Shown here: positions 1-28,031 of the stretch, one piece after another
How the letters are laid out: each line of letters starts with the position of its first letter
How positions within the stretch are numbered: the stretch's first letter is position 1
Origin: an uncultured Methanomassiliicoccales archaeon
GTDB lineage: Archaea > Thermoplasmatota > Thermoplasmata > Methanomassiliicoccales > UBA472
Assembly: GCA_963755265.1 (NCBI GenBank)
Contig: CAVWKV010000084.1
Span: 5,157-69,156, forward strand
Direction: 5' to 3'
Length of the DNA stretch: 64,000 nt
Program-made: the position numbers and the translations under genes
Notes under the pieces: model-generated
The model's input: the letters and a program-made list of their open reading frames with translations, nothing else
Told to the model about the DNA's origin: nothing
Database searches by the model: none

Positions 1-87
1 GATGCACTCATCCTCAACGGTCTTCTTGTCTGGCTGCCTCTGGGACCCGGTGAACTCTCGCCCGTCATAAGCGATCATCACCGCAGC

Positions 88-1182
88 GTGCCAACCCATG
101 ATGACGTAGAGCCCCGAACTGATAATTATCATTACCGCCCCGGCAGTATTATGAGAGTTCCCGCCAATCATTCAGGGATGTCCCGAGGTGCAGGAGAGAC
201 ATTGAGGGAAACCGTTGACTGGCTAATGTCCTCGCAAGATCCTGCGGTTAGGCTTGCGGCCTTAAAGGATCTGGGCGGTTTATCAGAGACGGAGCCGGAC
301 GTGGTCAGGGCTGGTCAGGACTCCATGCGATCGGGGCCAATTCCAAGGATCTTGTCTTGGCAGAACCGAGAAGGCTTTTGGGGCATTGAGGAGAATTTTT
401 ACACCAATTCAAAATACAAGGGAACGGTCTGGAACGTCATTCTGCTAGCCCAGCTGGGAGCTGACGGATCAGACGATCGAATACGGTCTGCCGCCGAATT
501 CCTACTGAAATGGTCGCAGCATGAGAGTGGCGGATTCGGATACCGTGGATCTGCGGACGGGCCTACAGCCGACAGCCTACTTCCATGCCTGACTGGTAAC
601 CTGGTATGGTCGATGCTACGTTTCGGCATGAAAGACGATGCACGAGTCCAAAATGGCATTGAATGGATAGCAAGATACCAGCGTTTCGATGATAACGAAG
701 GACCGGCGCCAAGAGGATGGCCCCACACTAGGGAGGATTGCTGGGGCAGGCACACTTGCCATATGGGAGTGATCAAGGGCCTGAAGGCTATCTCGGCCGT
801 TCCAAAGGACGAACGATCGGTGGCTATGGAAAGGGTAGCCTCAGAAGGCGCGGAACATCTGCTCAAGCACCATCTATATAAACGGAGCCATGATGTAAAT
901 GCAATCGCAAAGCCGAGATGGACCCAGTTAGGATTTCCCCTCTTCTGGGATACCGATGCTTTGGAGATGCTCGAGGTGCTAACTGACCTTGGCTACCGGG
1001 ACGATAGGATGGATGACGCGATACAGTTAGTTCTGTCCAAACGTATGTCAAACGGAAAATGGAAAAACGAAAGGAGCTACGCAGGAAGGATCTTGACCAC
1101 CATTGAACGGCAGGGGGCTACGAGCCAGTGGGTCACCTTGAAATCCTTGGCCGTGCTTAAGAAGCTGGGCCGACTCGACTAG
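88..1182 (+). CDS. Prenyltransferase / terpene-cyclase-like (alpha-alpha toroid repeat) protein
   Basis: 364-aa ORF starting at GTG 88; in-frame ATGs at 151 and 178 are alternative starts. Recurrent aromatic-Gly repeats (QNREGFWG, HESGGFGY, SNGKWKNE) resemble squalene-cyclase/prenyltransferase repeats. Family call is by motif recall only. Confidence 0.5.
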   Translation: MPTHDDVEPRTDNYHYRPGSIMRVPANHSGMSRGAGETLRETVDWLMSSQDPAVRLAALKDLGGLSETEPDVVRAGQDSMRSGPIPRILSWQNREGFWGIEENFYTNSKYKGTVWNVILLAQLGADGSDDRIRSAAEFLLKWSQHESGGFGYRGSADGPTADSLLPCLTGNLVWSMLRFGMKDDARVQNGIEWIARYQRFDDNEGPAPRGWPHTREDCWGRHTCHMGVIKGLKAISAVPKDERSVAMERVASEGAEHLLKHHLYKRSHDVNAIAKPRWTQLGFPLFWDTDALEMLEVLTDLGYRDDRMDDAIQLVLSKRMSNGKWKNERSYAGRILTTIERQGATSQWVTLKSLAVLKKLGRLD

Positions 1183-1245
1183 AATGACGTCCCTTCCAGA
1201 AAACAATTATACCCAGGGTGGATTCGCTGAGCGAAGGATAATAAT

Positions 1246-1968
1246 ATGACCAGCTTCAGGATCGTCCTGGTAGAGCCTCAGACGGATGGGAACGTGGGAG
1301 CGATAGCCAGGTCGATGGGAAATTTCGGGTTCGACCGTTTGTTCATGATGAACCCATGCGAACTGACCGAAGAGGCGTACAAGAGGGCAAAGCATGGCGG
1401 AAATATCCTGAGAGGGGCAACTATCGTTTCCACCTTCGAAGAGGCGATCGCAGGCTGTTTCCTTATCGTCGGCACCAGTGGCATCATCACATATGGTGAC
1501 AAGAACTTCATTCGCATACCGATAACGCCCCGCGACCTGGCAGAAAGGACAAAGGAACAGGAAGATGAGGTTGCACTGGTCTTTGGCAGGGAGGACATCG
1601 GGCTCACACAGGAACAGTTGGCGAAATGTGATATCCTGGTCAACATACCTTCGAACGAGGAATACCCGACCCTCAACCTCTCGCATGCGGCCACGATCCT
1701 GATGTATGAGATTTTCGCCAGTCACGGGAAACCGAGCAATCCGAAGAAGGCGACCGAGGCCGAAAAAGAGAAGTTGTTCGAGTTCTTCGACTCTTTGCTC
1801 GATGCGATCGAATATCCAGACCATCGCAGGGAAAAGACCAGCGTAATGTTCCGAAGGATGATGGGCCGAGCGGTCCCGACCAGCTGGGAGTTCCATACCA
1901 TCATGGGCGTGATCGGTGATGCTGCAAAGAAAATCGAGCGACTCGAGAAAGCGGAAAATAAAAAGTAA
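1246..1968 (+). CDS. trmJ: SpoU/TrmH-family tRNA (cytidine/uridine-2'-O-)-methyltransferase, TrmJ-like
   Basis: 240-aa ORF. N-terminal RIVLVEPQTDGNVGAIARSMGNFGF and C-terminal SPOUT knot motifs (LVFGREDIGL, NLSHAATILMYEI) are typical of TrmJ. Confidence 0.75.
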   Translation: MTSFRIVLVEPQTDGNVGAIARSMGNFGFDRLFMMNPCELTEEAYKRAKHGGNILRGATIVSTFEEAIAGCFLIVGTSGIITYGDKNFIRIPITPRDLAERTKEQEDEVALVFGREDIGLTQEQLAKCDILVNIPSNEEYPTLNLSHAATILMYEIFASHGKPSNPKKATEAEKEKLFEFFDSLLDAIEYPDHRREKTSVMFRRMMGRAVPTSWEFHTIMGVIGDAAKKIERLEKAENKK

Positions 1969-1973
1969 GATTA

Positions 1974-2993
1974 CTAGCGCCTGTATTTGCCCAGCACAAC
2001 GTTGATGTCATCCATCGATTCAGCAGCTGGATTCAGCTCGGAGATGCCGGTGACCAGCGCAATCAACCTTATCGTTTCGTTATCGTCCTCCACTGTTCTG
2101 ACGCCGAACTTGACGTTGGCGTCAACGTCGAGCTGTTCAGTGAGGCCCTCTACGATGCGGTGAACGCGCCTGAGGGTCAGGCTGCTGCCGCCGGAAATAT
2201 GTATCAACGCGCCGGTCCCGCCTTTGATGTCAATGTCCAGCAGCGGATTCTGGACTGCGTCACGGACGACACCTTCCGGATCGGCGTTCTCCGCATAGAG
2301 GAGCGTCGATATCCCACCATGCTTGATGATCGTCCTTAGGTCCGCGAAATCGAGGTTGATCAATGAAGGTTTGGTCAACGCATCGACCAGTCCCTTGATG
2401 AGCTCGGAGACGAGGGCGTCCATGACCCCCAGGGCCTGGTTCATGGGCAGGTTGTCCACCATCTGCATTAGGCGGTTGTTGTCCAAGACCAGCACCGTGT
2501 TGGAATATTCATTGAGCCGCTTAAGACCGATCATTGCGTTACGACGCCTGGTCCCGGACTCGATCTTGAACGGCATGGTGGCAATCGATATGACTATGGA
2601 GCCGGCCTTCTGCGCAAACTCAGCGATGACTGGCGCGGCCCCGGTGCCGGTGCCTCCGCCCATTCCAGTTATGATGAATGTAAGATCGACATCATTGAAC
2701 ATCTCGCAGAACAGGTTAGCACAATTACGTGCGCATTGTTCGCCGACCTCGGGAAGGCCCCCTGCACCAAGACCGTGGGTATAGTTAGCTCCGATAAGCA
2801 CGCGGTTCTCGCAGCGTGTCTCCTTCAGACTGCGCTGGTCGGTGTTGATGGCTATGGTTATAGCTGACTCTAGGCCGATCTTGTTCAGCCTGGTGATGCT
2901 GTTACACCCGCCGCCACCACAACCCACGACGAGTATCTTCAAGTCAGGAGCGTCGATGCCTGACTGATCGTCCCATCCCGAGCCAATCCCCAT
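1974..2993 (-). CDS. ftsZ2: FtsZ-family tubulin-like GTPase, divergent paralog (FtsZ2-like)
   Basis: 339-aa ORF with GCGGGGCNSITR, GLGAGGLPEVG, the tubulin signature [13 protein letters not shown] and T7-loop NLDFADLRT. It lies 28 bp downstream of an RHH gene, matching the cdrS-ftsZ2 synteny reported in Euryarchaeota. It is much more divergent than the two FtsZ copies at 7139 and 8836. Confidence 0.8.
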   Translation of the reverse strand: MGIGSGWDDQSGIDAPDLKILVVGCGGGGCNSITRLNKIGLESAITIAINTDQRSLKETRCENRVLIGANYTHGLGAGGLPEVGEQCARNCANLFCEMFNDVDLTFIITGMGGGTGTGAAPVIAEFAQKAGSIVISIATMPFKIESGTRRRNAMIGLKRLNEYSNTVLVLDNNRLMQMVDNLPMNQALGVMDALVSELIKGLVDALTKPSLINLDFADLRTIIKHGGISTLLYAENADPEGVVRDAVQNPLLDIDIKGGTGALIHISGGSSLTLRRVHRIVEGLTEQLDVDANVKFGVRTVEDDNETIRLIALVTGISELNPAAESMDDINVVLGKYRR

Positions 2994-3021
2994 CTCGATT
3001 ACCTCAAGGGGAGCGTGTCCG

Positions 3022-3333
3022 TCACTTCAACTCGCTGACCGCCTTCTCCAGGCGCATCCTCACATATTCCCTGACAGCGTTCCTAATGGCATCGTCTATC
3101 GATACCGAGTCCCCGTCCTTTACGAGCGCCTCCAGCTCTATTATCTTGGTCTTAGGGAGTTCCACGGTGACCCTCTCGATGTACTCAGGCGTGAAATGCG
3201 TTTCGACGAAGGTGTCGATCGCCGCCCTTATCGCATCGGAGATGGTCGGGTACTTGCCGGCGTCCACCAGTGACTGTAATGCCTGTAGCTTCTCGGCAGG
3301 AATCCTGACCGTAATCCTTTCGCTGTCGACCAT
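3022..3333 (-). CDS. Tandem ribbon-helix-helix (CopG/CdrS-like) DNA-binding protein
   Basis: 103-aa ORF containing two RHH modules in one chain (ERITVRIPAEKLQALQSLVDAGKYPTISDAIRAAIDTFV and ERVTVELPKTKIIELEALVKDGDSVSIDDAIRNAVREYV). It lies immediately upstream of ftsZ2 on the same strand. Confidence 0.75.
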   Translation of the reverse strand: MVDSERITVRIPAEKLQALQSLVDAGKYPTISDAIRAAIDTFVETHFTPEYIERVTVELPKTKIIELEALVKDGDSVSIDDAIRNAVREYVRMRLEKAVSELK

Positions 3334-3431
3334 GACACAACTCTTATCCCGTTGAATTGTCTGACGCTTTTTGCCAAAACGTCTGACAAATTGGATGATT
3401 CACTTGAGAATATATAAAAGTTGGCGAATCC

Positions 3432-3454
3432 CTGCATTGTTTACTTGGTGTTGG
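3432..3454. repeat. Left terminal inverted repeat CTGCATTGTTTACTTGGTGTTGG (TSD CGAATCC at 3425-3431)
   Basis: Exact reverse complement of 5435-5457, read directly from the sequence. Confidence 0.9.
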
Positions 3455-3553
3455 TATTGAGGTGGATGAATGTCCGACATTTTAATTCATTTCTAACCCT
3501 AGAAAACGAAGGATTATATTGCAGACTAATGACGACATTTTCTAAATATTGCT

Positions 3554-5058
3554 TCAATGATCAATAAGAAACGATTGAAGGTTGCTGGTAGTCTTCTTTG
3601 GATTTTTCGCCTTTGGAGCTTTAACATAAGTAGTATTGGTCGCTTTTGATAAAACGGACAGAGGGCATTTTATTCTCTCTCCGTTTAACAGTTGCTCAAC
3701 CGTTAGCAACTGCATTCTTGGATATTTCGGATTGCCAAGCTCTCTAGACGTGTAGAATCCAGCTTCTGCGGCTTCCGTTTTCATCGGTCCAGTCGATTCA
3801 TGCATTGAAATCAGGACTCCAATCGATGCTTTGTCTCTTTCAACCACTCCACGAAGATCACGGACATAGGATGCTGTTACGTTTCCTGCCTTCACAGAAA
3901 TGAGGATTTGTTCCTCCTTGCCCCTTTCAACGAAGAAATAGAGCCGCCCATCAATGCCTTTGTCAGCACCTTTCTTCTCTTCCTCTGGTCGAGCACCAAC
4001 CAATCCAAGTGCCCACCATTGAAATTGATAAGGGTCCTGTTTTGCGAGAGCTTCCGCATCGCTAACTGAAACTGGTTCTCCTATCACCTGATACACAGCC
4101 TTGCTTCCGAAGGCATCCCCGAGCCTATGCCTCATCAACGTAATCGCTAAATGGGTTATATCTATTCCAATCCAACTTCGCTCCAATCTCTGAGCCACCA
4201 TTACCGTCGTTCCGCATCCACAGAATGGATCGAGTACGACATCGCCTGGGCGACTACTTGCCATGATAATCCTCTCCAACAACTTCTCAGGCTTTTGAGT
4301 AGGATACCCTATTTTTTCCGGTGACGCTGGCTGGAGGCAAGGAATTCGCCAAACGTTATCGATTGTTCTATCAGTCTTGATTTGATACATTACATGACCT
4401 TCTTCGTCCTTCGCATTGACCATTTTGCCTTCGACTTTCTTTCTCTTGAGTTGCTTTATTGGTTCATCGCGTTGCTCCTTTAACTGTTGGAATAAAAAGT
4501 CAGAATGGACATCTTTGACATAGAATAGAATCGAGTCAGTCGCGTGGGGAAATAACTTCTTTCTGCTATCGTGCATTTTATTATAATAATACCAATGAAT
4601 CTCATTTCTGAAATTTTCGGGGCCGAAGATTGAATCCATCAGTATCTTGAGGTAATGGCTCGCTGTGGAATCACAATGCAAATAGATTGATCCGGTTGTT
4701 TTCAACGCCCTTCGGAACTCGCTTAGTCTAGGGGCCATCATAACAATATATGCCATCATGTCGCTTGGACCAAGTAGTTTATGAAAGGCAGTCATTGTTT
4801 GGGCAATCTCCCCCCCCCCCCTTCGACTAAATTTTCGTAGGCAAGCGAGGCTTGCAGGTCCCACGTCCAAGTATCTTCGAACGCCTTGATTTGAGATTGA
4901 GCCTGTGAGCCGTTCTTCTCTTCGAAAAGCACATTATAGTCTTGCTGGCTCTTGAAAGGAGGGTCAAGATAGATGAGGTCTATGCTTTCATCATCAATGT
5001 AACGTCTGAGAATCTCTAGATTGTCTCCATAATAGAGCGTATTCTTTATCTCAGACAT
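3554..5058 (-). pseudogene. Beta-class N6/N4 DNA methyltransferase fused to a C-terminal Mrr_cat-like nuclease domain, frameshifted in a G12 tract
   Basis: The N-terminal piece (ORF 4792-5163; likely start MSEIKN at 5058) has motif IV LDPPF. The C-terminal piece (ORF 3554-4870) has the SAM motif [10 protein letters not shown] and an Mrr-like tail ([12 protein letters not shown]...ISVKAGN...GVLIS). The two frames meet in the homopolymer at 4810-4821; 10 or 13 G would restore a single ORF of about 500 aa. Confidence 0.8.
4810..4821. repeat. C12 (G12 on the coding strand) homopolymer inside the methyltransferase gene
   Basis: Twelve consecutive C counted on the + strand. This is the exact point where the reading frame switches. 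Confidence 0.9.
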
Positions 5059-5434
5059 AGTACCACAAAGGGGACATATAGCTATCTGATATTCTTCTTT
5101 TCCTATTATTATCACACTTGGTATTCGGTGCGAAATGGCATAGTCCACACCAATAGGGTGCAAGAACGAGTTAAACTGTAAAACTCATATTTGCCCATTG
5201 TATCAGATCCCCCCACCCGTTCTCTATCGGCAGCTCCAGACCCGCCTTCCTTGCTCTGTCCGCCTTTACCACCTTTCGCCATTATTTACACCTGAAGTAT
5301 TGCTAGTCTATTCGGATTAATAAAACGTGCCTTAAGAGTCCATAGAATAGAATTTGCAATCAAAATCAACTAGATACTGGCTACTATTTTGTCAGCCAAA
5401 ATGTCACAATACATCCATCGGTTGAATGATTGGA

Positions 5435-5457
5435 CCAACACCAAGTAAACAATGCAG
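5435..5457. repeat. Right terminal inverted repeat CCAACACCAAGTAAACAATGCAG (TSD CGAATCC at 5458-5464)
   Basis: Exact reverse complement of 3432-3454, read directly from the sequence. Confidence 0.9.
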
Positions 5458-5806
5458 CGAATCCCTGAGAGCCTGACCCCTTCAACCGTGTTAGATATCT
5501 GGTCTTGTGCCAATCGGGAATGGTTTCGTTATTTGACACCTCGGATGTGGCAACAGTTACTAATAATGCTTCATGGCCCTCACGTCTCTCTGAAGTTATG
5601 TACATTCGACCCGCCTACATTGTTATAAACATGCGCGGCAGGAGGTCCATATGCCCCCAAACATTGTTTAGGAGGACGATACTCCGAAGGTCTTCCGTTT
5701 GCTCTTAACTCTGAGAAAGCGTGGGCACAGGTGCTAAAAGGGCGAAGGATAATGACGCTCCCGTGAGCAAGATGACCGATGAGTTCAGGGCGGTGAGCCA
5801 TCTACG

Positions 5807-6667
5807 TTGAAAATCGACTTCCCCATACTGGACAATCACCTTCATCTGCAGCCGAAAGGCCGTAATGTCGAGGCGATCAAAGAATTCGAGAAGGCAGGTG
5901 GAACTCATGCCATCCTGAGCCATATGCCCTACGATGAGCTCAAGATAACCTGTGGGGCCGATTTCGAACGTTCGTACCGTATCACCATGGGCACGGCCGA
6001 ACGCTGCAACCGCGAATCCGGAGTGGGAGTGTTCGTGACGTTGGGCCCATATCCGGTCCTGCTCATAGACCTGGCCAAGGAGCATGGGCTGGAGGCCGCG
6101 ACACAGATGATGATAGAGGGAATGGAATCGGCGGCCAGACTTGTCAAGGAAGGAAATGCAATAGCCATCGGCGAGGTCGGAAGGCCGCATTTTGACGTCC
6201 CGCCGGAGATCATGGCGGCATCCAATGACATCCTCCGCTACGGCATGTCCCTGGCCAAAGAGGTTTCTTGTCCAATTGTAATTCATGCCGAGACGGCGAC
6301 TCCAGAGACCATGGAGGATCTTGGGCAAATGGCTGACTCGGTAGGACTGGACCGGGGCAAGGTGGTCAAGCACTTTTCTCCTCCTTTGGTGTTGGAAGAG
6401 GAGAACCGAGGACTGATGGCGTCGGTCCTGGCCTCGAGGAGCAACATCCAGGAAGCATTCGGCAAAGGGGACCGCTTCTTCCTGGAGACCGATTTCATGG
6501 ACGAGCCGACCCGCCCGGGAGCGGTATTACCCATCGATACAGTGCCAAAAAGGATCAAAGGATTGGCGCAGTCGGGCATCGCTACATCAGAACTGATCGA
6601 GACCATCTGGAAGGTCAACAGGGATAATCCGAAAAGAGTATACGGGATCGATCTAGAAAGAGCCTGA
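5807..6667 (+). CDS. TatD-family metal-dependent hydrolase
   Basis: 286-aa ORF with N-terminal DNHLHLQP and later EVGRPHF and VIHAE, matching TatD/amidohydrolase metal ligands. Confidence 0.6.
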   Translation: MKIDFPILDNHLHLQPKGRNVEAIKEFEKAGGTHAILSHMPYDELKITCGADFERSYRITMGTAERCNRESGVGVFVTLGPYPVLLIDLAKEHGLEAATQMMIEGMESAARLVKEGNAIAIGEVGRPHFDVPPEIMAASNDILRYGMSLAKEVSCPIVIHAETATPETMEDLGQMADSVGLDRGKVVKHFSPPLVLEEENRGLMASVLASRSNIQEAFGKGDRFFLETDFMDEPTRPGAVLPIDTVPKRIKGLAQSGIATSELIETIWKVNRDNPKRVYGIDLERA

Positions 6668-6670
6668 ACA

Positions 6671-6961
6671 TCACCGGATCACGAACTGATCATACTGGTC
6701 CTGGCATGACGACCATATGATGTCGATCTTGTCCACGTGGGCGAAAGGGTGCTCATCCCTGAGCATCCGGATCACCTCTTCGATGTTCTCCTTCTCACCC
6801 TCGAACATCGCTTCGACGGTGCCGTCGGGCAGGTTCTTGACCCATCCGTTGACGCCTCTCCTGCGGGCGAACCTTCGGGTATAGTCACGGAAATGGACGC
6901 CCTGGACCCTTCCTCTGAAGATCGCTTCCGCACGGACTTTCATTGAATGTCGACCTTGCAT
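6671..6961 (-). CDS. acyP: Acylphosphatase
   Basis: 96-aa ORF with FRGRVQGVHFRDYTRRFARRRGVNGWVKNLPDGTVEAMFEG, which matches the acylphosphatase signatures. The start may be the internal MKVRAE at 6943. Confidence 0.8.
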   Translation of the reverse strand: MQGRHSMKVRAEAIFRGRVQGVHFRDYTRRFARRRGVNGWVKNLPDGTVEAMFEGEKENIEEVIRMLRDEHPFAHVDKIDIIWSSCQDQYDQFVIR

Positions 6962-7138
6962 TGCTCTATCTCTTCTTGATTTTTACATTTTCTTGTCGAT
7001 GGGCGTTCCGGCGGTAGGTCAACTCAAACAAACCTATCTTTTCGCCTGGCAATAAAACCCCGATATGATTTTTATAATCCGTCACCATATGGGGAGCAGT
7101 ATTAGTGGTCACTTTAGGCTATCAGGAAGGGAAATGGG

Positions 7139-8272
7139 ATGTTGAAATCATTAGTGGAGGATGCACTGGCCAGGGACGAAACGCCCATGCCAAGGTTCGA
7201 GCAAGCGCCGGCGGCTCAGCCGGCCTTCAAGCAGGCAGAGGACGCGGACGCAGAACTCATAGCGATTCTGCAAACACTGAGGACCAACATTAAAATCATC
7301 GGTGTCGGAGGGGGCGGTTCCAACACCATTAACCGCATCTACGACGAACAGATCGTTGGAGCCGAGACATACGCGGCGAACACGGACGCACAACACCTGC
7401 TGATGGTCCGGGCCCAGCACAAGATCCTCCTTGGCAGGAGGAGCACCCGCGGACTCGGCGCTGGAGCGTTGCCGCAAGCCGGGGAGCAAGCGGCCCAAGA
7501 GGCCGAGCAGGAAGTACGCAAGGCAGTTCAGGACGCGAACATCGTCTTTGTCACCGCGGGAATGGGCGGAGGCACTGGGACAGGCGCAGCGGCCGTCGTG
7601 GCCGGAATCGCCAAGGACGCTGGGGCTTTAACCATCGCCGTTACGACCACGCCGTTCAAGGGCGAAGGCAAGATGAGGATGGAGAATGCGGAGTGGGGCC
7701 TGGAAAGGCTCAGGAACTCTGCCGATACTGTTATCGTTATCCCGAACGACAAACTGCTGGAACTTTATCCCAGACTGTCTCTGAACCAAGCCTTCAAGGT
7801 AGCGGACGAGGTCCTGACCAGGGCCATTAAGGGCATCACCGAGCTCATCACTAAACCGGGATTGGTCAATCTCGACTTCAACGACCTGCGCACAATCATG
7901 AAGGGCGCTGGCGTGGCCATGATCGGAATGGGAGAGTCCACCGGTCATGTCGAGGATAGGGCACTGGAGGCAATCCAGATGGCCCTCAACTCCCCTCTGC
8001 TCGAGGTTGACATAAGCAGTGCGAATGGTGTCCTGGTCAACGTCGTCGGCGGTCCAGACATGACCATCGGGGACGCTCAGAAGGTAGCTGAGGAAGTTCA
8101 GAAGCGCGTAAGCCCCAATGCAAGGATCATTTGGGGTGCAGGCGTCGATCCCGCGCTGGAGCACAAGATCCGGGTTATGGTTGTCATCGCCGGAGTGCAC
8201 TCCAAGCAAATCCTCGGCAAGTCAAATGAGCAGGCGAAGCTCAAGGGCTCCGAGGTCGACTTCATAAAGTAA
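7139..8272 (+). CDS. ftsZ1: Cell division protein FtsZ (FtsZ1-type), upstream copy of a tandem pair
   Basis: 377-aa ORF with [45 protein letters not shown] and a conserved C-terminal VDFIK. By eye about 70% identical to the 8836 copy. Confidence 0.9.
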
Positions 8273-8309
8273 AGCCGTACCTCGGCTGTGAAACCTTTTC
8301 CCTATTCTT

Positions 8310-8534
8310 CTATCGTCTTTCTTTCATGTCGAACAAGAATACGTCCTCGATCCGAACCTTGAAGAACCGGGATATTTTGAACGCAAGTTCGAGTGACGGA
8401 TCGAATTTCTCGTTCTCTATGCAGATGATCGTCTGCCGGCTCACGCCGATCTTCTCAGCAAGCTCGGCTTGGGTCATATTGGTCAAGGCCCGGTATACAC
8501 GCACGTTATTTTTCATTGGTTCACACAGGGACAA
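8310..8534 (-). CDS. Small XRE-family helix-turn-helix transcriptional regulator
   Basis: 74-aa ORF (start possibly MKNNV at 8516). MTQAELAEKIGVSRQTIICIENEKFDPSLELAFKISRFF is a canonical Cro/C1 HTH. Confidence 0.8.
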   Translation of the reverse strand: MSLCEPMKNNVRVYRALTNMTQAELAEKIGVSRQTIICIENEKFDPSLELAFKISRFFKVRIEDVFLFDMKERR

Positions 8535-8835
8535 TATTATCGATGATGTAGTGAGTTATGTACATAATGATATTTTTACATTACTTATTGTCATAGCTTG
8601 ATATCTTTTAGTGAATAATACTTTACATGAATGCCCAAGATTCTTCAATAATCGAACGACAAACTTAATACAATTCGGCATCCAGATACTATTTTTATGT
8701 TGATTGAAAACACAAAGAAAATTAGAATATATCTACAATATCACCGAAATGTTTTATACACACAACGCCCCTAACGACTATCAACCATCCACTGCCAGCG
8801 AGGCTGAAGTGGTCATATCGAAGGAGGAGTTCATC

Positions 8836-9948
8836 TTGAAATCATTCATCACCGACGCCCTTACCCGGGCCGGACCTGCGGGCGCAACAGAGCCAGTTCA
8901 AGCACCATATAGCCAATCCACATCGCAAGAGGACGAAGAACTGACCAAGATCCTCATGGGCTTGAAGACCAACATAAAGATCATTGGCTGCGGAGGCGGA
9001 GGATCTAACACCATCGACCGGCTCTATGCATCGAACATCAAGGACGCCGATCTTTACGCTGCCAACACCGACGCCCAACACCTGCTGGTGATCCGGGCCC
9101 ATAAGAAGATCCTGTTGGGCAGGAGGAGCACTCGAGGATTAGGAGCCGGGGCGCTGCCGCAAGTGGGAGAGGAGGCGGCGAAGGAAGCGGAGGAGGACCT
9201 TAGGAAGGCACTCCAGGGAGCGGACATCGTTTTCGTTACCGCTGGGTTGGGCGGCGGCACCGGGACCGGTTCGGCTCCGTACGTCGCCCAGCTGGCCAAG
9301 GATATGGGGGCGCTCACGATCGCTATCGTTACCTCCCCGTTCAAGGCCGAGGGAACGATTCGGGCGGAGAACGCCGAATGGGGCCTGGAGAGGATGCGGG
9401 CCGTCGCTGACACCGTGATAGTCATCCCGAACGACAAGTTGATTGAGCTGGTACCGAGATATTCTCTGAACCAGGCCTTTAAGGTCGCCGACGAAGTGCT
9501 GATGAGGGCCATCAAGGGCATCACCGAGCTCATCACGAAGCCTGGATTGGTCAATCTCGACTTCAACGACCTGCGCACCATCATGAAAGGAGGGGGTGTG
9601 GCCATGATCGGAATGGGGGAAGGTGAGGACGAGGACCGGGTCGAGGATGCAGTCAACGAAGCGATCAATTCCCCGCTCATCGACGTAGACATCACCGGAG
9701 CTAACGGCGTCCTGGTGAACGTCACTGGAGGGGAGGATATGTCCATCGGTGACGCCCAGAAGGTGGCCGAGTTGATTCAAGCGAAGGTATCACCGAATGC
9801 CAGGATCATTTGGGGAGCGTCAGTCGACCCTGCCTTGGAGAACCGCATCCGGGTGATGGTGGTCATCACCGGTGTCAAGTCTAAGAACATCCTGGGTCCC
9901 AAGGAATCAAAATCCGTAAAGGCGATGAACGTAGATTTCATCAAATGA
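8836..9948 (+). CDS. ftsZ1: Cell division protein FtsZ (FtsZ1-type), downstream copy adjacent to secE
   Basis: The frame is open from 8704, but TTG 8836 has AGGAGG (8822-8827) 8 nt upstream and aligns with the N-terminus of the 7139 copy (KSFITDAL vs LKSLVEDAL). It has the same FtsZ motifs and the VDFIK tail, and occupies the canonical ftsZ-secE-spt5 position. Confidence 0.88.
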   Translation: MKSFITDALTRAGPAGATEPVQAPYSQSTSQEDEELTKILMGLKTNIKIIGCGGGGSNTIDRLYASNIKDADLYAANTDAQHLLVIRAHKKILLGRRSTRGLGAGALPQVGEEAAKEAEEDLRKALQGADIVFVTAGLGGGTGTGSAPYVAQLAKDMGALTIAIVTSPFKAEGTIRAENAEWGLERMRAVADTVIVIPNDKLIELVPRYSLNQAFKVADEVLMRAIKGITELITKPGLVNLDFNDLRTIMKGGGVAMIGMGEGEDEDRVEDAVNEAINSPLIDVDITGANGVLVNVTGGEDMSIGDAQKVAELIQAKVSPNARIIWGASVDPALENRIRVMVVITGVKSKNILGPKESKSVKAMNVDFIK

Positions 9949-10004
9949 TGCATTTACCTGAGGAAAGGATTATCTAGAGAAAACTAATAGACCCTTCTTC
10001 AAGA

Positions 10005-10238
10005 GTGCTTAAAATGGACATCGTCGAGAAATCCTGGGAAGTCCAAGAGACTATCGAAGATAGGGTCAAGAAGATCGGTAAGGGTAAGTATGGCCGAGTA
10101 ATCAAGATGGCCCGAAAACCTACTCCAGATGAGTACGTGAAGACCGTCATGATCACCGGGTTGGGCATTATCCTCATCGGCGGGGTGGGCTTCGCAATAT
10201 ACTTAATATGGAAGTACTTGCCGGGAATGTTCGGATAA
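10005..10238 (+). CDS. secE: Preprotein translocase subunit SecE / Sec61-gamma
   Basis: 77-aa ORF with a single C-terminal TM (VMITGLGIILIGGVGFAIYLIW) after the basic KMARKPTPDEY. It holds the conserved position between ftsZ and spt5. Confidence 0.75.
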   Translation: MLKMDIVEKSWEVQETIEDRVKKIGKGKYGRVIKMARKPTPDEYVKTVMITGLGIILIGGVGFAIYLIWKYLPGMFG

Positions 10239-10267
10239 TGTCCGTTTCTATTACCGGGGTATAACGT

Positions 10268-11134
10268 ATGACCGATGAAGATAACCAGACACTAATGCCC
10301 CAGACGCAGGGCGCCGGTTCCGTCTCCCTCAGCGGAGAGAACGCCCCCAGCATCATGGCAGCAGGGGCCATCACGACCTGGCCACTGCAAGTCAAGAGTT
10401 CAGAAAGCGGAAAGAAGAAGATCGTTTTACGAGTTAAGGTCGACCTGGAAGAGGGCGCACCGGAATGGGAGATAAAGCTCACCGACGCTACTGGCACATC
10501 ACTATGGGAGAGCCAAGCCGCAGGAGCAGCCCAGGCCGAGTTCAATCTTGACGGCCCACGTCCCAAGGATATTAAGCTCATCGTTGAGGCGCCCAAGGGT
10601 GCACGTTATAACGATAAGGTGACCATCACGTTGGAGGTCTGCAACATGGACCAGGTCTGCGCGACCAAGGAGTTCAGCGCGACCGCCAGGCAATCGATCC
10701 TGGTCCTTAAGACCTCGATCGGCCACGAAAGGAACGTCGCAGACGGCGTCTCCAGCAAGGCCAAGACCGGCAACACTGGCATATTCGCCATACTTGCCCC
10801 GGGCAAGTTAGATGGTTACGTCTTCATGGAAGCAATGAACACCGACCTGGTGAGGGAGACCGTCCGCGGCGTCCGCAAGGCCAAGGGCCTAGTGGAAGGC
10901 GAGACGAGCTTCAACGAGATCGAGCACTTCCTGACCCCGAAGCCGCTGGTTTCCGGGATCATGGAGGGCGACGTGGTCGAACTGGTCGCCGGTCCGTTCA
11001 AGGGTGAGAAGGCCAGGGTCCAGAAGATCGATGAGAGCAAAGAAGAGATCACCGTCGAGCTGTTCGAGGCGACCGTTCCGATACCGGTCACCGTCAGGGG
11101 CGACCACGTGAGAGTTCTCGAGAAGGAGAAGTGA
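10268..11134 (+). CDS. spt5: Transcription elongation factor Spt5 (NusG) with an in-frame 126-codon N-terminal extension
   Basis: The C-terminal ~160 aa are a normal NGN+KOW Spt5 (ILVLKTSIGHERNVA..., GDVVELVAGPFKGEKARVQKID). The frame stays open upstream to ATG 10268, encoding a beta-rich, CARDB/NEW3-like segment. The canonical-length start would be ATG 10646. Confidence 0.85.
   Translation: MTDEDNQTLMPQTQGAGSVSLSGENAPSIMAAGAITTWPLQVKSSESGKKKIVLRVKVDLEEGAPEWEIKLTDATGTSLWESQAAGAAQAEFNLDGPRPKDIKLIVEAPKGARYNDKVTITLEVCNMDQVCATKEFSATARQSILVLKTSIGHERNVADGVSSKAKTGNTGIFAILAPGKLDGYVFMEAMNTDLVRETVRGVRKAKGLVEGETSFNEIEHFLTPKPLVSGIMEGDVVELVAGPFKGEKARVQKIDESKEEITVELFEATVPIPVTVRGDHVRVLEKEK
10633..10648 (+). 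promoter_or_regulatory. Internal Shine-Dalgarno (GGAGG) plus ATG at the canonical Spt5 start
   Basis: GGAGG at 10633-10637 lies 8 nt before ATG 10646. The same SD spacing is seen at rpl1, rplP0, rpl12 and ftsZ (8836) in this window. Confidence 0.5.
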
Positions 11135-11139
11135 GTATA

Positions 11140-11616
11140 ATGCCAGAGACTATTGAAGTGCTAGTAGACGGTGGCAAGGCCACTCCCGGACAGCCGCTCG
11201 GCCCAGCGCTGGGCCCGACCGGGATCAACGTTGTCCAAGTTGTGCAGAAGATCAACGAGAAGACCAAGGCCTTCGCAGGGATGAAGGTCCCGGTCAAGAT
11301 CACGATAAACGCGAACAAGACCTTCGATATCAAGGTCGGCACACCGCCGACCTCGGCGCTGCTGTTCAAGGAACTGGGCGTGGAGAAGGGATCGGGCGCA
11401 CCAAAGGCGACCAAGGCCGGCGACATCACCATGGAGCAGGCCGTCAAGGTCTCCGAGATGAAGAAGGACTCCCTAATGGGCAAGGACCAGAAGCACCGTG
11501 CCAAGGAGGTCATAGGAACCTGCGTCTCGTGCGGGATAACCGTCGAGGGCAAGGAACCAAAGGACATCCTGAAGGAGATCGACGAAGGTAAGTGGGACGC
11601 GAAATTCGCGGCCTGA
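11140..11616 (+). CDS. rpl11: 50S ribosomal protein L11
   Basis: MPETIEVLVDGGKATPGQPLGPALGPTGINV is the L11 N-terminal signature. The ORF opens at GTG 11131, but ATG 11140 gives the usual N-terminus. Confidence 0.92.
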   Translation: MPETIEVLVDGGKATPGQPLGPALGPTGINVVQVVQKINEKTKAFAGMKVPVKITINANKTFDIKVGTPPTSALLFKELGVEKGSGAPKATKAGDITMEQAVKVSEMKKDSLMGKDQKHRAKEVIGTCVSCGITVEGKEPKDILKEIDEGKWDAKFAA

Positions 11617-11717
11617 ACGACCCCGTCCCTTTACAATAGATTTATAAACGGCAGGTCCATCTAGGGCCTACCGCTCTGTAGGAGAGGCAACTCGTTAATA
11701 CTACAGGAGGAATAGCA

Positions 11718-12356
11718 TTGGCAGAGAAGACAACACTAACGGCCGTCAAGAAGGCGCTGGAGAAATCTCCGAAGCGCAATTTTAGAGAGACGGTCGACCT
11801 ATCGATAAACCTGAAGGATGTGGATCTTTCTATCCCGAAGAACAGGATACAGGAAGATATCATCTTGCCTCATGGTAGGGGTAGGGCTGTCCGGGTCTGC
11901 ATCATCGGAGGCGGCGAACTTGCTCAGAAGGCCAAGAACGTCGCCGACAAGGTCATCACCCCGGAGGAATTGGGATCCCTGGCCGACAACAAGAGGGAGG
12001 CAAAGAAGGTTGCCGCACAGTACGATTTCTTCGTCTGCGAAGCGCCATTGATGCCGACCGTCGGTAAGAGATTGGGTATCGTGCTCGCTCCCCGTGGTAA
12101 GATGCCGAGGCCAATAGCCCCAGGCGCTGACCCCAAGCCGATGGTGGACAACCTAAGGAAGTCCGTCGCCATCAGAAGCAAGGACAAGATGACGTTCCAC
12201 ACCGCGGTAGGTACGACTGAGCTGACTCCGGAACAGATCGCTGACAACATCGACCTCATAATCAAGAGGATCGCGGTCAAACTGGAAAAGGGAACGATGA
12301 ACATCCGGTCGGCTTACATCAAGACGACCATGGGCCCGTCGGAGAGGCTCATCTGA
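11718..12356 (+). CDS. rpl1: 50S ribosomal protein L1
   Basis: 212-aa ORF with a TTG start and AGGAGG (11705-11710) 7 nt upstream. KRNFRETVDLSINLKD and the position in the L11-L1-P0-P1 block support the call. Confidence 0.9.
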   Translation: MAEKTTLTAVKKALEKSPKRNFRETVDLSINLKDVDLSIPKNRIQEDIILPHGRGRAVRVCIIGGGELAQKAKNVADKVITPEELGSLADNKREAKKVAAQYDFFVCEAPLMPTVGKRLGIVLAPRGKMPRPIAPGADPKPMVDNLRKSVAIRSKDKMTFHTAVGTTELTPEQIADNIDLIIKRIAVKLEKGTMNIRSAYIKTTMGPSERLI

Positions 12357-21240: not shown

Positions 21241-21312
21241 GCGGCTATAGTCTAGTGGTTAGGACTGAAGCTTCCCAAGCTTCGAACTCGGGTTCGAATC
21301 CCGGTAGCCGCA
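21241..21312 (+). tRNA. tRNA-Gly (anticodon CCC)
   Basis: Hand-folded cloverleaf: acceptor GCGGCTA/TAGCCGC plus discriminator A, D-arm GTCT/GGAC, anticodon stem GAAGC/GCTTC with loop TTCCCAA (CCC at 21274-21276), T-arm TCGGG-TTCGAAT-CCCGG. No encoded CCA and no intron. Confidence 0.9.
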
Positions 21313-21314
21313 CT
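21300..21314 (+). repeat. attL core (CCCGGTAGCCGCACT) overlapping the tRNA-Gly 3' end
   Basis: Exact 15-bp match to 29261-29275. Confidence 0.85.
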
Positions 21315-21440
21315 CTTATTTTATCCAGTCAGTTCATTTTTGAATTCAATCAGGGGTCTTTTTGCACTTTGCCGTCTGGCCTGAAAACACGTTACCAAGC
21401 TTTGAGGGAAACGCGAGAGAGCTAGAAAGGAAGTGCAACT

Positions 21441-21761
21441 ATGAGAAAGATCGAAAGGATAGGCGAGAGGAAAGTGATGCTAGACACGTCGAACGACGAA
21501 ATGCTCTATGACTCCAAGACGGCGAGGGCATATCACGGGAGCAACTCCCCGACCAGGGGGCTGGACCTCTATGTTCATGTCTGCAAGGACATGACGCAGG
21601 TGTTCTATCTGTACCATTGGACCCAATGGCAGGGCGAGCGCTCGTTCATCGAGCCGATGAGCAAGGACCGGGCCGCCGTGTTCGCGGAGGAGAACCTGGA
21701 GGACATCAAGGAGGACCGGGCGACGGAGCTAGGGCTCATCGACGCGGGGGCGGTCGAGTGA
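21441..21761 (+). CDS. Hypothetical protein (element-borne)
   Basis: 106-aa ORF, first of five co-directional genes. Its stop overlaps the next start (GTGA at 21758-21761). Confidence 0.5.
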   Translation: MRKIERIGERKVMLDTSNDEMLYDSKTARAYHGSNSPTRGLDLYVHVCKDMTQVFYLYHWTQWQGERSFIEPMSKDRAAVFAEENLEDIKEDRATELGLIDAGAVE

Positions 21762-21964
21762 GCGAGACCGTCATGAAGAGGGACGGTAAGGAGGCGAAAG
21801 GATACGAAGGACTGGACCCCCGATCGATCCGGCTTCAGTGGATATTCGGTAGTGAGCTCGACCTCTCCGAAGGAAGGAAAGAGGCGGTGAAGGCAGTCCT
21901 CGAACGATCGATGAGCGAGATCACGGAGATCCTCGGGATCGGCGGGCCGGTCCGGGAGGGCTGA
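21758..21964 (+). CDS. Hypothetical small protein (element-borne)
   Basis: The GTG start overlaps the upstream stop, giving 68 aa (VSETVMKRDGKEAKGYEGL...). The longer ORF-track version (21617) overlaps the previous gene and is less likely. Confidence 0.4.
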   Translation: MSETVMKRDGKEAKGYEGLDPRSIRLQWIFGSELDLSEGRKEAVKAVLERSMSEITEILGIGGPVREG

Positions 21965-21968
21965 GATC

Positions 21969-22451
21969 GTGGAGACGATACAGAGCGAAGGGGCGACCCC
22001 TTCCGAGCCTACAAACGGGGCGAAAAGCCCCGACTTTCACCCCATTTCCACAGTCCCGGACACGATGGTATCTCAAAAGAGAAGGTGCTCGTACATCTCC
22101 GGTACAGGTGCAGGCTGTCGGGCCTACGCGGTCAAGGATTCGACCTTCTGCTTCTATCACGATCCTAGCCCGGCGGCGATCGCCAAGAGGGAACGGGGCC
22201 TTCGGGACAAGAGCAAGAGGTCGAACACCAAGGACGGGCTCCCGGGATGGGAATCTAGGCCGCTCGACACGCTAGAGGCGGTACGGGACGCGCTCAGCGA
22301 ACTCTTTAACGCGGGAGCGAAAGGAGACATAACCGCAGCTCGACTAAGCGCCCTGAGCGCCATATCAAACTCCATATCCAAGGCCATCGAAGGGAGCGAC
22401 CTCGAAGAAAGGATAGCGGCACTCGAGGAAAAGCTGGAGGCGAAGAAATGA
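21969..22451 (+). CDS. Hypothetical protein with Cys/His cluster and helical C-terminus (element-borne)
   Basis: 160-aa ORF with a GTG start 5 nt after the previous stop. It has a CSYISGTGAGCRAY...FCFYH possible zinc site and a coiled-coil-like tail. Confidence 0.5.
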   Translation: METIQSEGATPSEPTNGAKSPDFHPISTVPDTMVSQKRRCSYISGTGAGCRAYAVKDSTFCFYHDPSPAAIAKRERGLRDKSKRSNTKDGLPGWESRPLDTLEAVRDALSELFNAGAKGDITAARLSALSAISNSISKAIEGSDLEERIAALEEKLEAKK

Positions 22452-22684
22452 CCACCAAGGAATCACGGATAGCCGCCTTGGAGCTCGCTACCGATGGAAT
22501 GGCCATCGATTCCGAAACCTTAGTCCTTCAACAGATGCCCGATGAGGAATTGGAGCGGCGGGTTCGGGAGATCCTAGCGAAGCATGACCCACCGGCAGCG
22601 GATGACATGAGCGAGGACGCGGAGATAGAACGCAGGGCCAGAAAACTCATGTCAAGGCGTGACGCTGAGAGGGCGAGACAATGA
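22448..22684 (+). CDS. Hypothetical small protein (element-borne)
   Basis: 78-aa ORF whose start overlaps the upstream stop (ATGA). Confidence 0.45.
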   Translation: MTTKESRIAALELATDGMAIDSETLVLQQMPDEELERRVREILAKHDPPAADDMSEDAEIERRARKLMSRRDAERARQ

Positions 22685-22908
22685 CCACGGAAAGGCGCAT
22701 CAAAGCACTGGAAGAGAGGATAGCATCGAACGATGAGAAATGCATCCTGGTGGACTGGGGCAGCGAGGCGATGCCAAAATGCCCGAAGGGTATCATGGTC
22801 TCGAAGGACCTTCATGAATGCGGGGTGTGCTCAGTCCCGGAAAAGAGGAGAACGGTCATTCGGATCAGGTGGATACCTGGAGCCGCTAAATGTTCGAACC
22901 GGAGATGA
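22681..22908 (+). CDS. Hypothetical small Cys-containing protein (element-borne)
   Basis: 75-aa ORF with an ATGA overlap to the upstream gene. CPKGIMV...CGVC suggests a zinc-ribbon-like motif. Confidence 0.45.
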   Translation: MTTERRIKALEERIASNDEKCILVDWGSEAMPKCPKGIMVSKDLHECGVCSVPEKRRTVIRIRWIPGAAKCSNRR

Positions 22909-23048
22909 AGGACCCCTGGAGTTCGGGCGTAATCGGACGTTCAATAACCGAGCTACTCCCCGATCGAAGGGTGGGGCGGTCCGGACGGGAGTTTTCTTTA
23001 CACCATAAAAAAGGGGCGATCTCAATCCCGGAGAAGAACCGGGACTGT

Positions 23049-23120
23049 CCTTCGTTGCCTCCACCCCCCTTTCTTGTTACCCTCTTACCCTTTTTCTTCT
23101 TTCTTTCTTCTCTCTATTCT
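23049..23120 (+). repeat. Polypyrimidine (CT-rich) tract
   Basis: 65 of 72 nt are pyrimidines on the + strand, including a 28-nt pure pyrimidine run at 23088-23115. It is followed by an AT-rich stretch and the iteron-like repeats. Confidence 0.8.
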
Positions 23121-23154
23121 ATACTGGATAATAAAAAATCGTAAAGAATCATTA

Positions 23155-23185
23155 GGGTAACAATTGGGGTAACTCATGGGGTAAC
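23155..23185 (+). repeat. Iteron-like direct repeats, 3 x (G)GGGTAAC at 11-12 bp spacing
   Basis: GGGTAAC at 23155-23161, GGGGTAAC at 23166-23173 and GGGGTAAC at 23178-23185. An inverted copy GTTACCC sits at 23076-23082 and a degenerate GGAGTTAAC follows. Confidence 0.7.
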
Positions 23186-28000: not shown

Positions 28001-28031
28001 TCTTTCCAGGGGTATAAGGGGGTAGTCTATC

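Follow-up and report, generated by a model that had tools for sequence, protein, structure and literature searches.

A probable mobile insertion cassette carrying a DNA methyltransferase gene in the genome of an uncultured Methanomassiliicoccales archaeon

Results

The sequence analysed here, a 64-kb stretch of the genome of an uncultured Methanomassiliicoccales archaeon (hereafter, the window), contains a 2026-bp element (3432-5457) in the spacer between genes encoding an RHH protein and TatD (Table 1). The element is bounded by terminal inverted repeats (TIRs; CTGCATTGTTTACTTGGTGTTGGT) that are exact reverse complements of each other over 24/24 bp. The first-pass annotation had placed these repeats at 3432-3454 and 5435-5457, and they are indeed perfect, but their actual length is 24 bp rather than the 23 bp given there. 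Within the 64-kb window, no further copies of the TIR were found at up to three mismatches, and shuffled sequences predict 0 matches. The heptamer CGAATCC adjoins both TIRs directly on the outside, forming the 7-bp direct repeat that had been read as a target-site duplication, and it occurs only once in the empty-site contigs described below. The right boundary is set at ...CAATGCAG by comparison with a related transposon end on a metagenomic contig (L007, see below), which rules out an alternative boundary at a 10-bp repeat (CGAATCCCTG); because the right end is fixed in this way, the left end could be placed by symmetry. Inside the left TIR, a subterminal motif (TGGATGAATGTCCGACATTTT) has a mirror counterpart at 5398-5417, with about 16 of the 21 positions matching when compared by hand, and the motif is also kept in L007. 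Together, the two copies may represent a putative second transposase-binding site.

The GC content of the element is 43.2%, compared to 53.6% for the window (~54% for the host), and the GC profile identifies the element as the strongest low-GC stretch of the 64 kb, in line with the AT-richer interior noted on first inspection. From the insertion point, the RHH start codon (3333) is 98 bp downstream, exactly the distance given in the first-pass annotation, and the TATA-like box that would serve the RHH/FtsZ-like operon is retained.

Table 1. Features of the element and of its insertion site (window coordinates)
Feature	Position	Strand	Basis
Putative TATA-like box of the RHH/FtsZ-like operon, TTTTATATAT	3410..3419	-	Read from sequence; 12 nt off the insertion junction
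Target-site duplication CGAATCC, left copy	3425..3431	.	Single copy in empty-site contigs L004 and L002
TIR, methyltransferase 3' side, 24 bp, perfect	3432..3455	+	Found twice in the window; 0 expected by chance
Subterminal motif	3463..3483	+	Mirror copy near the right end; kept in L007
Beta-class N6/N4 DNA methyltransferase with C-terminal REase-fold (NA-iREase1/Mrr_cat-like) domain	3554..5058	-	Pfam, motif order, homologs
Homopolymeric G tract of the coding strand (read as 12 C on +)	4810..4821	-	12 G, frame lost
56-aa ORF	5112..5282	-	Begins at the right-end module's conserved ATG; of this ORF, only the start is kept in L007
Conserved right-end subterminal region	5265..5433	-	~80% identical to L007 (alignment)
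TIR, methyltransferase 5' side, 24 bp	5434..5457	-	Outer edge set by comparison with L007
Target-site duplication CGAATCC, right copy	5458..5464	.	Single copy in empty-site contigs L004 and L002

The clean empty site predicted from the window, ...GTTGGCGAATCC|CTGAGAGCC..., exists in nature: the exact sequence is carried by relatives represented in L004/L001 (ENA ERZ25039529) and L002 (Logan ERR11523659). In these metagenomic contigs, which stem from near-identical strains, the RHH-TatD spacer is 440 bp long, compared to 2473 bp for the filled site, and flanking sequences share 99.9% identity with the window. The filled site is also present in L005 (Logan ERR11523660) and L003 (ENA ERZ25039466), and thus, counting the window, in three independent assemblies, which were produced by different methods; the empty junction is found in two assemblies, and all the filled and empty alleles come from one study. 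Between the two kinds of allele, ~6 kb of flanking sequence shows only 1-2 SNPs. The element itself is identical in the three filled assemblies with the exception of a G tract, which is the sole difference between the window and L005 over 4.5 kb. Given that the TIRs and the duplication are perfect, that the filled copies are otherwise identical and that both alleles occur side by side among near-identical strains, the insertion event is recent. The combination of TIRs, 7-bp duplication and verified empty site bears out the earlier proposal that the insertion is of the transposition type.

The only recognisable gene of the element occupies 1505 of the 2026 bp and encodes a protein of 500 aa when in frame. 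Pfam searches yielded matches to N6_N4_Mtase (2e-45), NA-iREase1 (1.5e-10) and Mrr_cat (6e-7), with PF01555 scoring 155.7 bits against a curated cut-off of 26.7. The DPPF motif (motif IV, residues 32-35) precedes DPFCGCGTT (motif I, FxGxG, near residue 276), which is the order characteristic of the beta class, and the best PDB matches are CcrM, RsrI and MboIIA. The protein is probably an N6-adenine methyltransferase. Homologs begin at the equivalent of MSEIKN; a split zinc ribbon (CGLC ... CPLCG) encoded upstream of this start was considered and rejected, as homologs lack such an N-terminal extension. The methyltransferase family, which counts more than 8000 bacterial and archaeal members, is very large and in other respects unremarkable. 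For the nearest homologs (56-68% identity), we retrieved eight loci representing six distinct contexts (L013, L015, L047, L049, L050-L052 and L053), and the TIRs of the element are absent from all eight.

In the C-terminal REase-fold domain, for which NA-iREase1 ('inactive') outscores Mrr_cat in Pfam, GIDG is kept and FQ is present in the first helix, whereas S-V-K replaces E/Q-x-K, as it does in at least 90% of 120 homologs. Hence, the active Mrr-type PD-(D/E)xK motif, D ... (E/Q)-x-K, is absent from this domain, the E/Q being missing. To judge from these residues, the domain is probably catalytically dead, and it may bind DNA. Because it lacks the acidic catalytic residue, the cargo is probably an orphan methyltransferase, and the single-chain restriction-modification (R-M) enzyme that the first-pass annotation had offered as an alternative is unlikely.

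That annotation correctly identified the lone gene as a beta-class methyltransferase with an Mrr_cat-like domain, but the gene is not intact in the window, where a frameshift within the 12-nt G run breaks it into two ORFs (4792-5163 and 3554-4870). In L003 and L005, the tract consists of 10 G, the gene is in frame, and the length of the protein equals that of the homologs, with the 10-G product collinear with the homologous segment ...V.SGGRVAEAM.... The tract is the sole homopolymer of at least 8 nt in the 64-kb window. Truncated 12-G products are on record for no other assembly, the 12-G allele being seen only in the window's own. The difference between 10 G and 12 G may reflect phase variation or an assembly error.

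No transposase was detected in the element: Pfam and NCBIfam searches recovered the methyltransferase and REase-fold domains only, and the profile search of the fusion protein, which the first-pass annotation had proposed, revealed no hidden transposase domain. Searches for Rfam RNA families in the element were likewise negative. The next-largest ORF is 56 aa long, and the remaining space, estimated earlier at ~0.5 kb, is too small for a transposase, as had been argued. This 56-aa ORF is probably the vestigial start of a lost transposase gene; examined as a transposase N-terminus, it gave no Pfam or NCBIfam match and no homologs among 1.84 billion representative proteins. The right-end module from which it starts faces inward and includes an archaeal-type TATA-like box (TTTTATTAAT, 5316-5325), AGGTG (5289-5293) and ATG (5280-5282). 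By its position, the TATA-like box could act as an inward promoter.

The ends of the element recur in L007, an archaeal contig from a JGI metagenome, which shares the same 20-nt terminus followed by ~190 bp at 80% identity, has a GC content of 42% and contains no methyltransferase gene. L007 is a truncated remnant. Because it has the ends without the methyltransferase, the ends are independent of the cargo and, on this comparison, come from a transposon family by which the methyltransferase gene was captured. The L007 flank, TGATTCG, and the duplication in the window, CGAATCC, both fit the pattern N-GAWTC-N, for which the chance probability at one fixed site is ~0.002.

Apart from L007, the search of JGI metagenomes for the TIR matched only L006 (23/24, at a contig edge), which is fungal, with a flanking GH93 sialidase-like protein 85% identical to that of Glonium stellatum, and is probably a chance match. 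About one chance 20-mer match is expected in ~10^12 nt, so that L006 was not counted as evidence, and the short transcript-like contigs for L006 do not extend to the repeat. Among 185,579 GTDB species representatives, the 20-nt terminus had 0 matches, and a 17-mer had 30 single matches, none of which had an inverted partner or could be extended. The top match, in the Archaeoglobaceae genome L018 (19/20), lies at a gene end and shows no subterminal similarity; this match and the other 17-mer matches were rejected as parents and attributed to chance. In IMG/VR, the 17-mer gave five chance matches only, and two subterminal patterns gave 0 matches. In blastn searches, the right end matched nothing among plasmids, and the whole element showed only weak similarity to phages, in the methyltransferase gene and not in the ends. 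The search for a transposase-bearing master element with the same TIR, recommended in the first-pass annotation, therefore yielded no parent in the window, GTDB representatives, JGI metagenomes, IMG/VR, or phage and plasmid records, and the cassette is known at one insertion site only.

The CTG ends, the 7-bp duplication and the GAWTC core weakly hint at the IS4 family. The target core, GAWTC in our case, is symmetric, and IS10 is known for its symmetric target consensus. The 5'-CT(G) ends are a feature shared with the ISPepr1, IS10 and IS50 subgroups of that family (De Palmenaer, Siguier and Mahillon 2008, PMC2266710), and specifically, ends starting with CTG and a 7-bp duplication match the 5'-CT and 7-8-bp direct repeats of the ISPepr1 subgroup (PMC2266710, Table 1). 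However, ISPepr1 members are bacterial, and the end consensus of the subgroup, YT-AA-YTT---A, agrees with CTGCATTGTTTAC at five of the eight specified positions (compared by hand), making this resemblance a lead from the ends alone and not a classification.

Discussion

Taken together, these observations make it likely, in our assessment, that the segment 3432-5457 represents a DNA transposon that is non-autonomous and of the mobile-insertion-cassette type. The ends of this transposon, that is, the 24-bp perfect TIRs along with the subterminal sequence, would derive from a rare archaeal transposon family, and the captured methyltransferase gene would fill the place usually held by the transposase gene, in the same orientation as the inward promoter-like module at the right end. 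Mobilisation would have relied on a transposase provided in trans, most probably a DDE enzyme and possibly an IS4-like one. After binding to the ends, this enzyme would have opened the target at C-GAATC-C by a cut with a stagger of 7 nt and inserted the element there, and repair of the stagger would have produced the CGAATCC duplication. Changes in the length of the G tract would then switch methyltransferase expression, with 10 G corresponding to the ON state and 12 G, as in the window, to the OFF state.

The methyltransferase fusion is the sole gene between the TIRs, so that it could itself be the transposase or an essential part of it, with the PD-(D/E)xK fold cutting both the ends and the target without any DDE enzyme, making the element an autonomous 'selfish methyltransferase' transposon. 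TnsA of Tn7 provides a precedent for a transposition nuclease with the REase fold, and Furuta et al. 2010 left open such a possibility for R-M units flanked by inverted repeats (PMC2853133). Moreover, one 66%-identical homolog (L015) is also enclosed by a 25-nt inverted repeat, although this repeat lacks a target duplication and flanking repeats are absent at the other seven of the eight homolog loci. The family is, besides, very large and ordinary. Strand transfer, furthermore, is beyond a lone nuclease, the domain in question lacks the E/Q of E/Q-x-K, with S-V-K in its place in most of the homologs and a best match to an 'inactive' family, and L007 has the same ends without a methyltransferase. 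Self-mobilisation is accordingly a very improbable explanation. Somewhat less improbable, but still unlikely, is the decay of an autonomous transposon (a 'transporter IS') that inserted with both a transposase and a methyltransferase gene and subsequently lost the former by deletion. Under this scenario, a deletion could have left its scar in the ~220 nt (5059-5282) that follow the conserved promoter-like, Shine-Dalgarno (SD) and ATG module, a sequence that is not conserved and has a broken frame. Against it stand the perfect TIRs and duplication, the identity of the element in three assemblies bar the G tract, and the lack of a detectable transposase remnant; in addition, the 1-2 SNPs in ~6 kb between the alleles leave scant time for a clean internal deletion.

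The least probable reading, which we give hardly any credence, dispenses with transposition altogether and attributes the structure to site-specific or homologous recombination or to an assembly artefact, with the repeats being coincidental. That no transposase was found and that only one site is known would be compatible with it, but a 24/24 inverted repeat, an exact 7-bp duplication and a single-copy empty site constitute the classical footprint of transposition; the filled junction was recovered in three assemblies by different methods and the empty one in two, and neither an integrase nor a long att-type repeat is present.

For the G tract, the choice lies between phase variation and a homopolymer assembly or polishing error that left 12 G in a gene that is actually intact with 10 G, and we give the error an even chance. 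Long G runs are prone to errors on all sequencing platforms, two other assemblies, one of them a short-read-style Logan contig, have 10 G, and 12-G products are recorded in no other assembly. However, the window is otherwise clean, differing from L005 at this tract only, and a G run of 10-12 nt within a methyltransferase ORF, here the only run of at least 8 nt in 64 kb, is the classical design of bacterial phase variation. Phase-variable DNA methyltransferases reportedly define the phasevarions of bacterial pathogens studied by Srikhanta, Jennings and colleagues. Known phasevarions mostly involve Type III mod or Type I hsd genes of host-adapted bacteria. As in those systems, a simple-sequence repeat inside the methyltransferase ORF sets the reading frame through its length (10, ON; 12, OFF), whereas in our case the gene is carried by an archaeal transposon, an assembly error may account for the OFF allele, and switching within the population would be an extrapolation. 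The broader notion of a portable epigenetic switch, in which a G-tract phase-variable orphan methyltransferase is moved among archaeal genomes by an undescribed GAWTC-targeting IS family, is less radical than self-mobilisation, but also rather unlikely.

The first-pass annotation regarded the organisation of the element as undescribed, but it matches that of mobile insertion cassettes, as the term is used in PMC3129680 (see also PMC2266710), and of the inverted repeat-flanked units analysed by Furuta et al. (PMC2853133). Mobile insertion cassettes, such as MIC231 of Bacillus cereus, a derivative of the IS4-family element IS231 (Chen et al. 1999 and De Palmenaer et al. 2004, as cited in PMC2266710), similarly consist of IS-type inverted repeats around one or more passenger genes, lack a transposase, generate a target duplication and are presumed to be mobilised by a cognate transposase in trans. 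The parent of MIC231 is thus a known element, and mobilisation in trans has been demonstrated for this cassette; the element described here differs in having an archaeal host, a DNA methyltransferase as the passenger and no parent IS in the databases searched.

Furuta, Abe and Kobayashi 2010 (NAR 38:2428, PMC2853133) described R-M and orphan-M units within genome-unique inverted repeats, with repeats of 65 bp (60/65) in X. oryzae and 26/26 in N. gonorrhoeae and with 8-bp duplications; the X. oryzae unit has no linked transposase, and no archaeal systems survived their screen. The resemblance includes an M gene within inverted repeats that are absent elsewhere in the window, short direct repeats and an empty site in a relative, and the same question arises of whether mobilisation occurs in trans or by the element itself. 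Unlike those bacterial units with 8-bp duplications, the element in the window is archaeal, with a duplication of 7 bp, and carries a solitary methyltransferase with a REase-fold domain and a G tract; its ends, as the independent relative L007 shows, existed before the cargo.

To conclude, the locus provides a clean population-level snapshot of a DNA methyltransferase gene entering an archaeal chromosome. According to Krupovic et al. 2019, composite transposons with passenger genes had gone undetected in archaea. Mobile insertion cassettes and inverted repeat-flanked R-M or M units, so far documented in bacteria, are extended here to archaea. The element is also a pointer to a transposon family of Methanomassiliicoccales-like archaea that is uncharacterised and whose hallmarks are a defined 24-bp end, a duplication of 7 bp and, apparently, a GAWTC target core. 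It further illustrates that annotation pipelines overlook both frameshifted genes of this kind and the boundaries of the cassette. If the variation of the G tract is real, the cassette would represent a candidate case of phase-variable DNA methylation in an archaeon, residing on a mobile element.

Structure and alleles of the insertion

Direct comparison of the element ends showed that one terminal inverted repeat (TIR), CTGCATTGTTTACTTGGTGTTGGT, is the exact reverse complement of the other; the first-pass annotation had correctly recognized a perfect inverted pair but gave its length as 23 bp instead of 24 bp. A search of the 64-kb window allowing up to three mismatches recovered these two copies only (0 expected, from 100 shuffles). 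The 7-bp direct repeat reported to abut the TIRs is indeed present at both outer edges and occurs once in empty sites, and manual comparison revealed a subterminal motif, TGGATG..AT..GACATTTT, common to both ends. The 2026-bp element has a GC content of 43.2%, against 53.6% for the window, and forms the most pronounced low-GC stretch in the composition profile across the window, in line with the AT-richer interior described earlier.

A search for contigs whose encoded proteins include RHH and TatD sequences identical to those flanking the element recovered both alleles. The site is empty in contigs from ENA ERZ25039529 (L004/L001) and Logan ERR11523659 (L002), where the RHH–TatD spacer is 440 bp long and reads ...AAAAGTTGGCGAATCCCTGAGAGCC... 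with one CGAATCC, exactly matching the predicted empty site. It is filled in Logan ERR11523660 (L005) and ENA ERZ25039466 (L003), with junctions identical to those in the window. Because the empty and filled flanks are 99.9% identical (1–2 SNPs per ~6 kb) and the element sequence is the same across all filled copies except for one homopolymer, the insertion is recent and still polymorphic within one population. These near-identical alleles and identical element copies also rule out an assembly artefact as the source of the insertion. The host belongs to Methanomassiliicoccales as judged by FtsZ1 homologs, the best named matches being 77–79% identical. Compared with positions 1-12000 of the window, the ENA ‘contig_’ assemblies (L003, L004) contain scattered 1-nt indels, the Logan contigs none; in the ENA assemblies the predicted FtsZ-like protein, for example, has 317 aa rather than 339 aa, and their gene calls are unreliable.

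The perfect inverted ends, the exact 7-bp duplication, and the single-copy empty site are the mark of transposition, by a cut-and-paste or copy-in route, in which the target was cut with a 7-nt stagger. The methyltransferase gene takes up all of the element but two stretches, of 122 bp and 399 bp, and the longest ORF in this remainder encodes 56 aa. It matched no Pfam or NCBIfam family, and a search of 1.84 billion representative proteins gave no homolog, which bears out the claim that no transposase is encoded within; no Rfam family was matched in the element. Because the element cannot encode the enzyme, a transposase would have acted in trans, encoded at another place in the genome or brought in by a transient plasmid or virus. 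The element is thus probably a non-autonomous cargo transposon, the core reading proposed initially, which the TIRs, the duplication, the empty sites, and the lack of an internal transposase support well.

Coordinates of the element and of neighbouring features in the window
Feature	Position	Strand	Remark
Element	3432-5457		
TIRs	3432-3455, 5434-5457		24 bp
Target-site duplication CGAATCC	3425-3431, 5458-5464		7 bp; adjoins both element ends
Subterminal motif	3463-3483, 5398-5417		
Methyltransferase gene	ATG 5058 to stop 3554	minus	sole substantial gene in the element
ORFs of the divided gene	4792-5163, 3554-4870		
Poly-C run	4810-4821		12 C (12 G on coding strand); frameshifts the gene
56-aa ORF	5112-5282		
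TATA-like box of RHH, TTTTATATAT	3410-3419	minus	retained; junction 12 nt upstream
FtsZ/tubulin-family genes	1974-2993, 7139-8272, 8704-9948		three in 8 kb (1974-9948)
HTH_3 regulator	8310-8534		
Integrated element at tRNA-Gly(CCC)	21241-29278		~8 kb
3′ end of tRNA-Gly(CCC), CCCGGTAGCCGCACTCTT	21300-21317		
Repeat of the tRNA 3′ end	29261-29278		17/18
Tyrosine integrase	28032-29252		directly before the repeat
DUF3800 protein	23290-23925		
MmeI_C fragment	25630-25974		114 aa

Methyltransferase cargo

The only credible gene was described as a beta-class methyltransferase with a C-terminal Mrr_cat-like domain, an assignment confirmed by the Pfam matches (N6_N4_Mtase, 2e-45; NA-iREase1, 1.5e-10; Mrr_cat, 6e-7) and the beta-class motif order, with DPPF close to the N-terminus and DPFCGCGTT downstream. 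PADLOC and NCBIfam classify the protein as a Type II adenine methyltransferase, and its closest PDB relatives are CcrM, RsrI, and MboIIA. The family comprises more than 8000 proteins scoring below 1e-20, from bacteria and archaea, mostly of ~490–560 aa, with a shared architecture. Its members start a few residues ahead of LYYGDNL, so that the cargo starts at MSEIKN, without a hidden N-terminal domain. An alignment of 120 homologs showed conserved GADKGIDG and S-V-K in the C-terminal domain, with S-V-K occupying the place of (E/Q)-x-K of Mrr-type nucleases and Q at the first-helix position. Because of this substitution, and because the top Pfam match of the domain is an ‘inactive’ REase family, we infer that the cargo is an orphan methyltransferase whose REase-fold domain probably serves in DNA binding; the single-chain restriction-modification (R-M) enzyme considered earlier finds no support.

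In the window, a G tract frameshifts this gene; in L003 and L005 the tract has 10 G, yielding an in-frame 500-aa protein, one segment of which is collinear with ...V.SGGRVAEAM... in homologs. It is the only homopolymer of at least 8 nt in the window and the sole difference from L005 over 4.5 kb, and looks like a phase-variation switch. About equally likely, the 12-G tract is an assembly error and there is no real length variation, as favoured by our failure to find the 12-G allele in any other assembly.

The 90%-identity cluster of the methyltransferase contains only the truncated product from the window and that of L005, so a single insertion site is known. Around the nearest homologs (56–68% identity), the TIRs were absent from all eight retrieved loci (six distinct contexts). 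At one locus, L015 (JGI Ga0315308_1000145), a 66%-identical homolog (P0002) lies between different 25-nt inverted repeats (3728-3752 and 5546-5570; 23/25 matching), with no visible target duplication. This repeat begins GGCACTGTT, which we take to resemble IS6/IS26 ends, and hints that the family has been picked up repeatedly by units bounded by inverted repeats. Neighbours of family members include a DDE_Tnp_1 transposase, a phage-type integrase island, and a DruA/DUF87 defence neighbourhood (L050-L052, 1-745; L047, 7005-7485; L013, 1-893). In general, members of this family are linked to mobile elements and defence islands.

Relatives of the element ends

The TIR search suggested for finding a transposase-bearing master element disclosed none in GTDB, IMG/VR, plasmids, or phages: the terminus was absent from 185,579 GTDB species (one genome each), a 17-mer of it gave only single chance matches in GTDB genomes and in IMG/VR, two subterminal patterns had no match in IMG/VR, and no similarity to the ends was found in plasmid and phage records. 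Scanning JGI metagenomes with the 20-nt terminus matched two contigs. One, L007, carries the terminus plus ~190 bp of subterminal sequence, ~80% identical to the element, with an archaeal-type methionine aminopeptidase gene to one side, tRNA-Arg to the other, and a GC content of 42%, compared with 53–58% in its flanks. Thus, the ends are those of a transposon family, of which L007, with neither a methyltransferase gene nor a second repeat found, is a remnant. The stretch conserved between the window and L007 stops at an inward-facing ATG, preceded by conserved AGGTG and TTTATTAAT, an arrangement that might represent the promoter and first codon of a transposase gene since lost.

The L007 flank TGATTCG (822-828) is a near reverse complement of the duplication in the window. 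As both match N-GAWTC-N, and GAWTC occurs at ~2.25 per kb in the window (chance match at one fixed position ~0.002), a symmetric target preference with a GAWTC core is suggested. All GAWTC sites are also GANTC sites, which CcrM/HinfI-type beta-class enzymes methylate, and the target core could possibly be linked to the specificity of the cargo.

The other contig, L006 (JGI Ga0193728_1024332), has a 23/24 TIR match at 25-48 but is fungal, its GH93 gene sharing 85% identity with the Glonium stellatum one, and is probably a chance match. The match lies 24 nt from the contig edge, a position expected of a repeated element.

Neighbouring genes

As first reported, 98 bp separate the insertion junction from the start codon of RHH, which lies downstream. 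Because the methyltransferase gene is oriented toward RHH, read-through into RHH is possible. The RHH gene precedes the first of the three FtsZ/tubulin-family genes; the other two share ~74% DNA identity, and the small HTH_3 regulator lies in the AT-rich spacer between them. Farther along the window, the element at tRNA-Gly(CCC) also encodes a 468-aa protein with no Pfam match, and its MmeI_C fragment resembles what would be left of a decayed Type IIG/L R-M gene.

Classification

The 5′-CTG termini, 7-bp duplication, and symmetric target core recall the IS4 family, in which the IS10, IS50, and ISPepr1 subgroups have 5′-CT ends and ISPepr1 generates 7–8-bp repeats (De Palmenaer et al. 2008, Table 1, PMC2266710). 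The ISPepr1 end consensus agrees at 5/8 positions, a comparison of ends alone in a transposase-free element, and IS4-family affiliation is a tentative, rather doubtful lead. In organization, the element equals a mobile insertion cassette, a term already in use (PMC3129680), whose prototype MIC231 is cited in PMC2266710 as deriving from IS231. Inverted-repeat-flanked R-M units are also known from X. oryzae (65-bp repeat, 8-bp duplication) and N. gonorrhoeae (26/26 repeat, 8-bp duplication), with empty sites in related genomes and orphan M genes in the same structures (Furuta et al. 2010, PMC2853133); that study leaves open whether such units are moved by a trans-acting transposase or by their own R-M proteins. 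The proposal of an undescribed class is therefore unsupported, the organization being that of these cassettes and units. No archaeal system survived the screen of Furuta et al. 2010 (PMC2853133), and passenger-carrying composite transposons are undetected in archaea according to Krupovic et al. 2019. Thus, with the same organization known in bacteria, the element is an archaeal case of an already known cassette type, not a new class.
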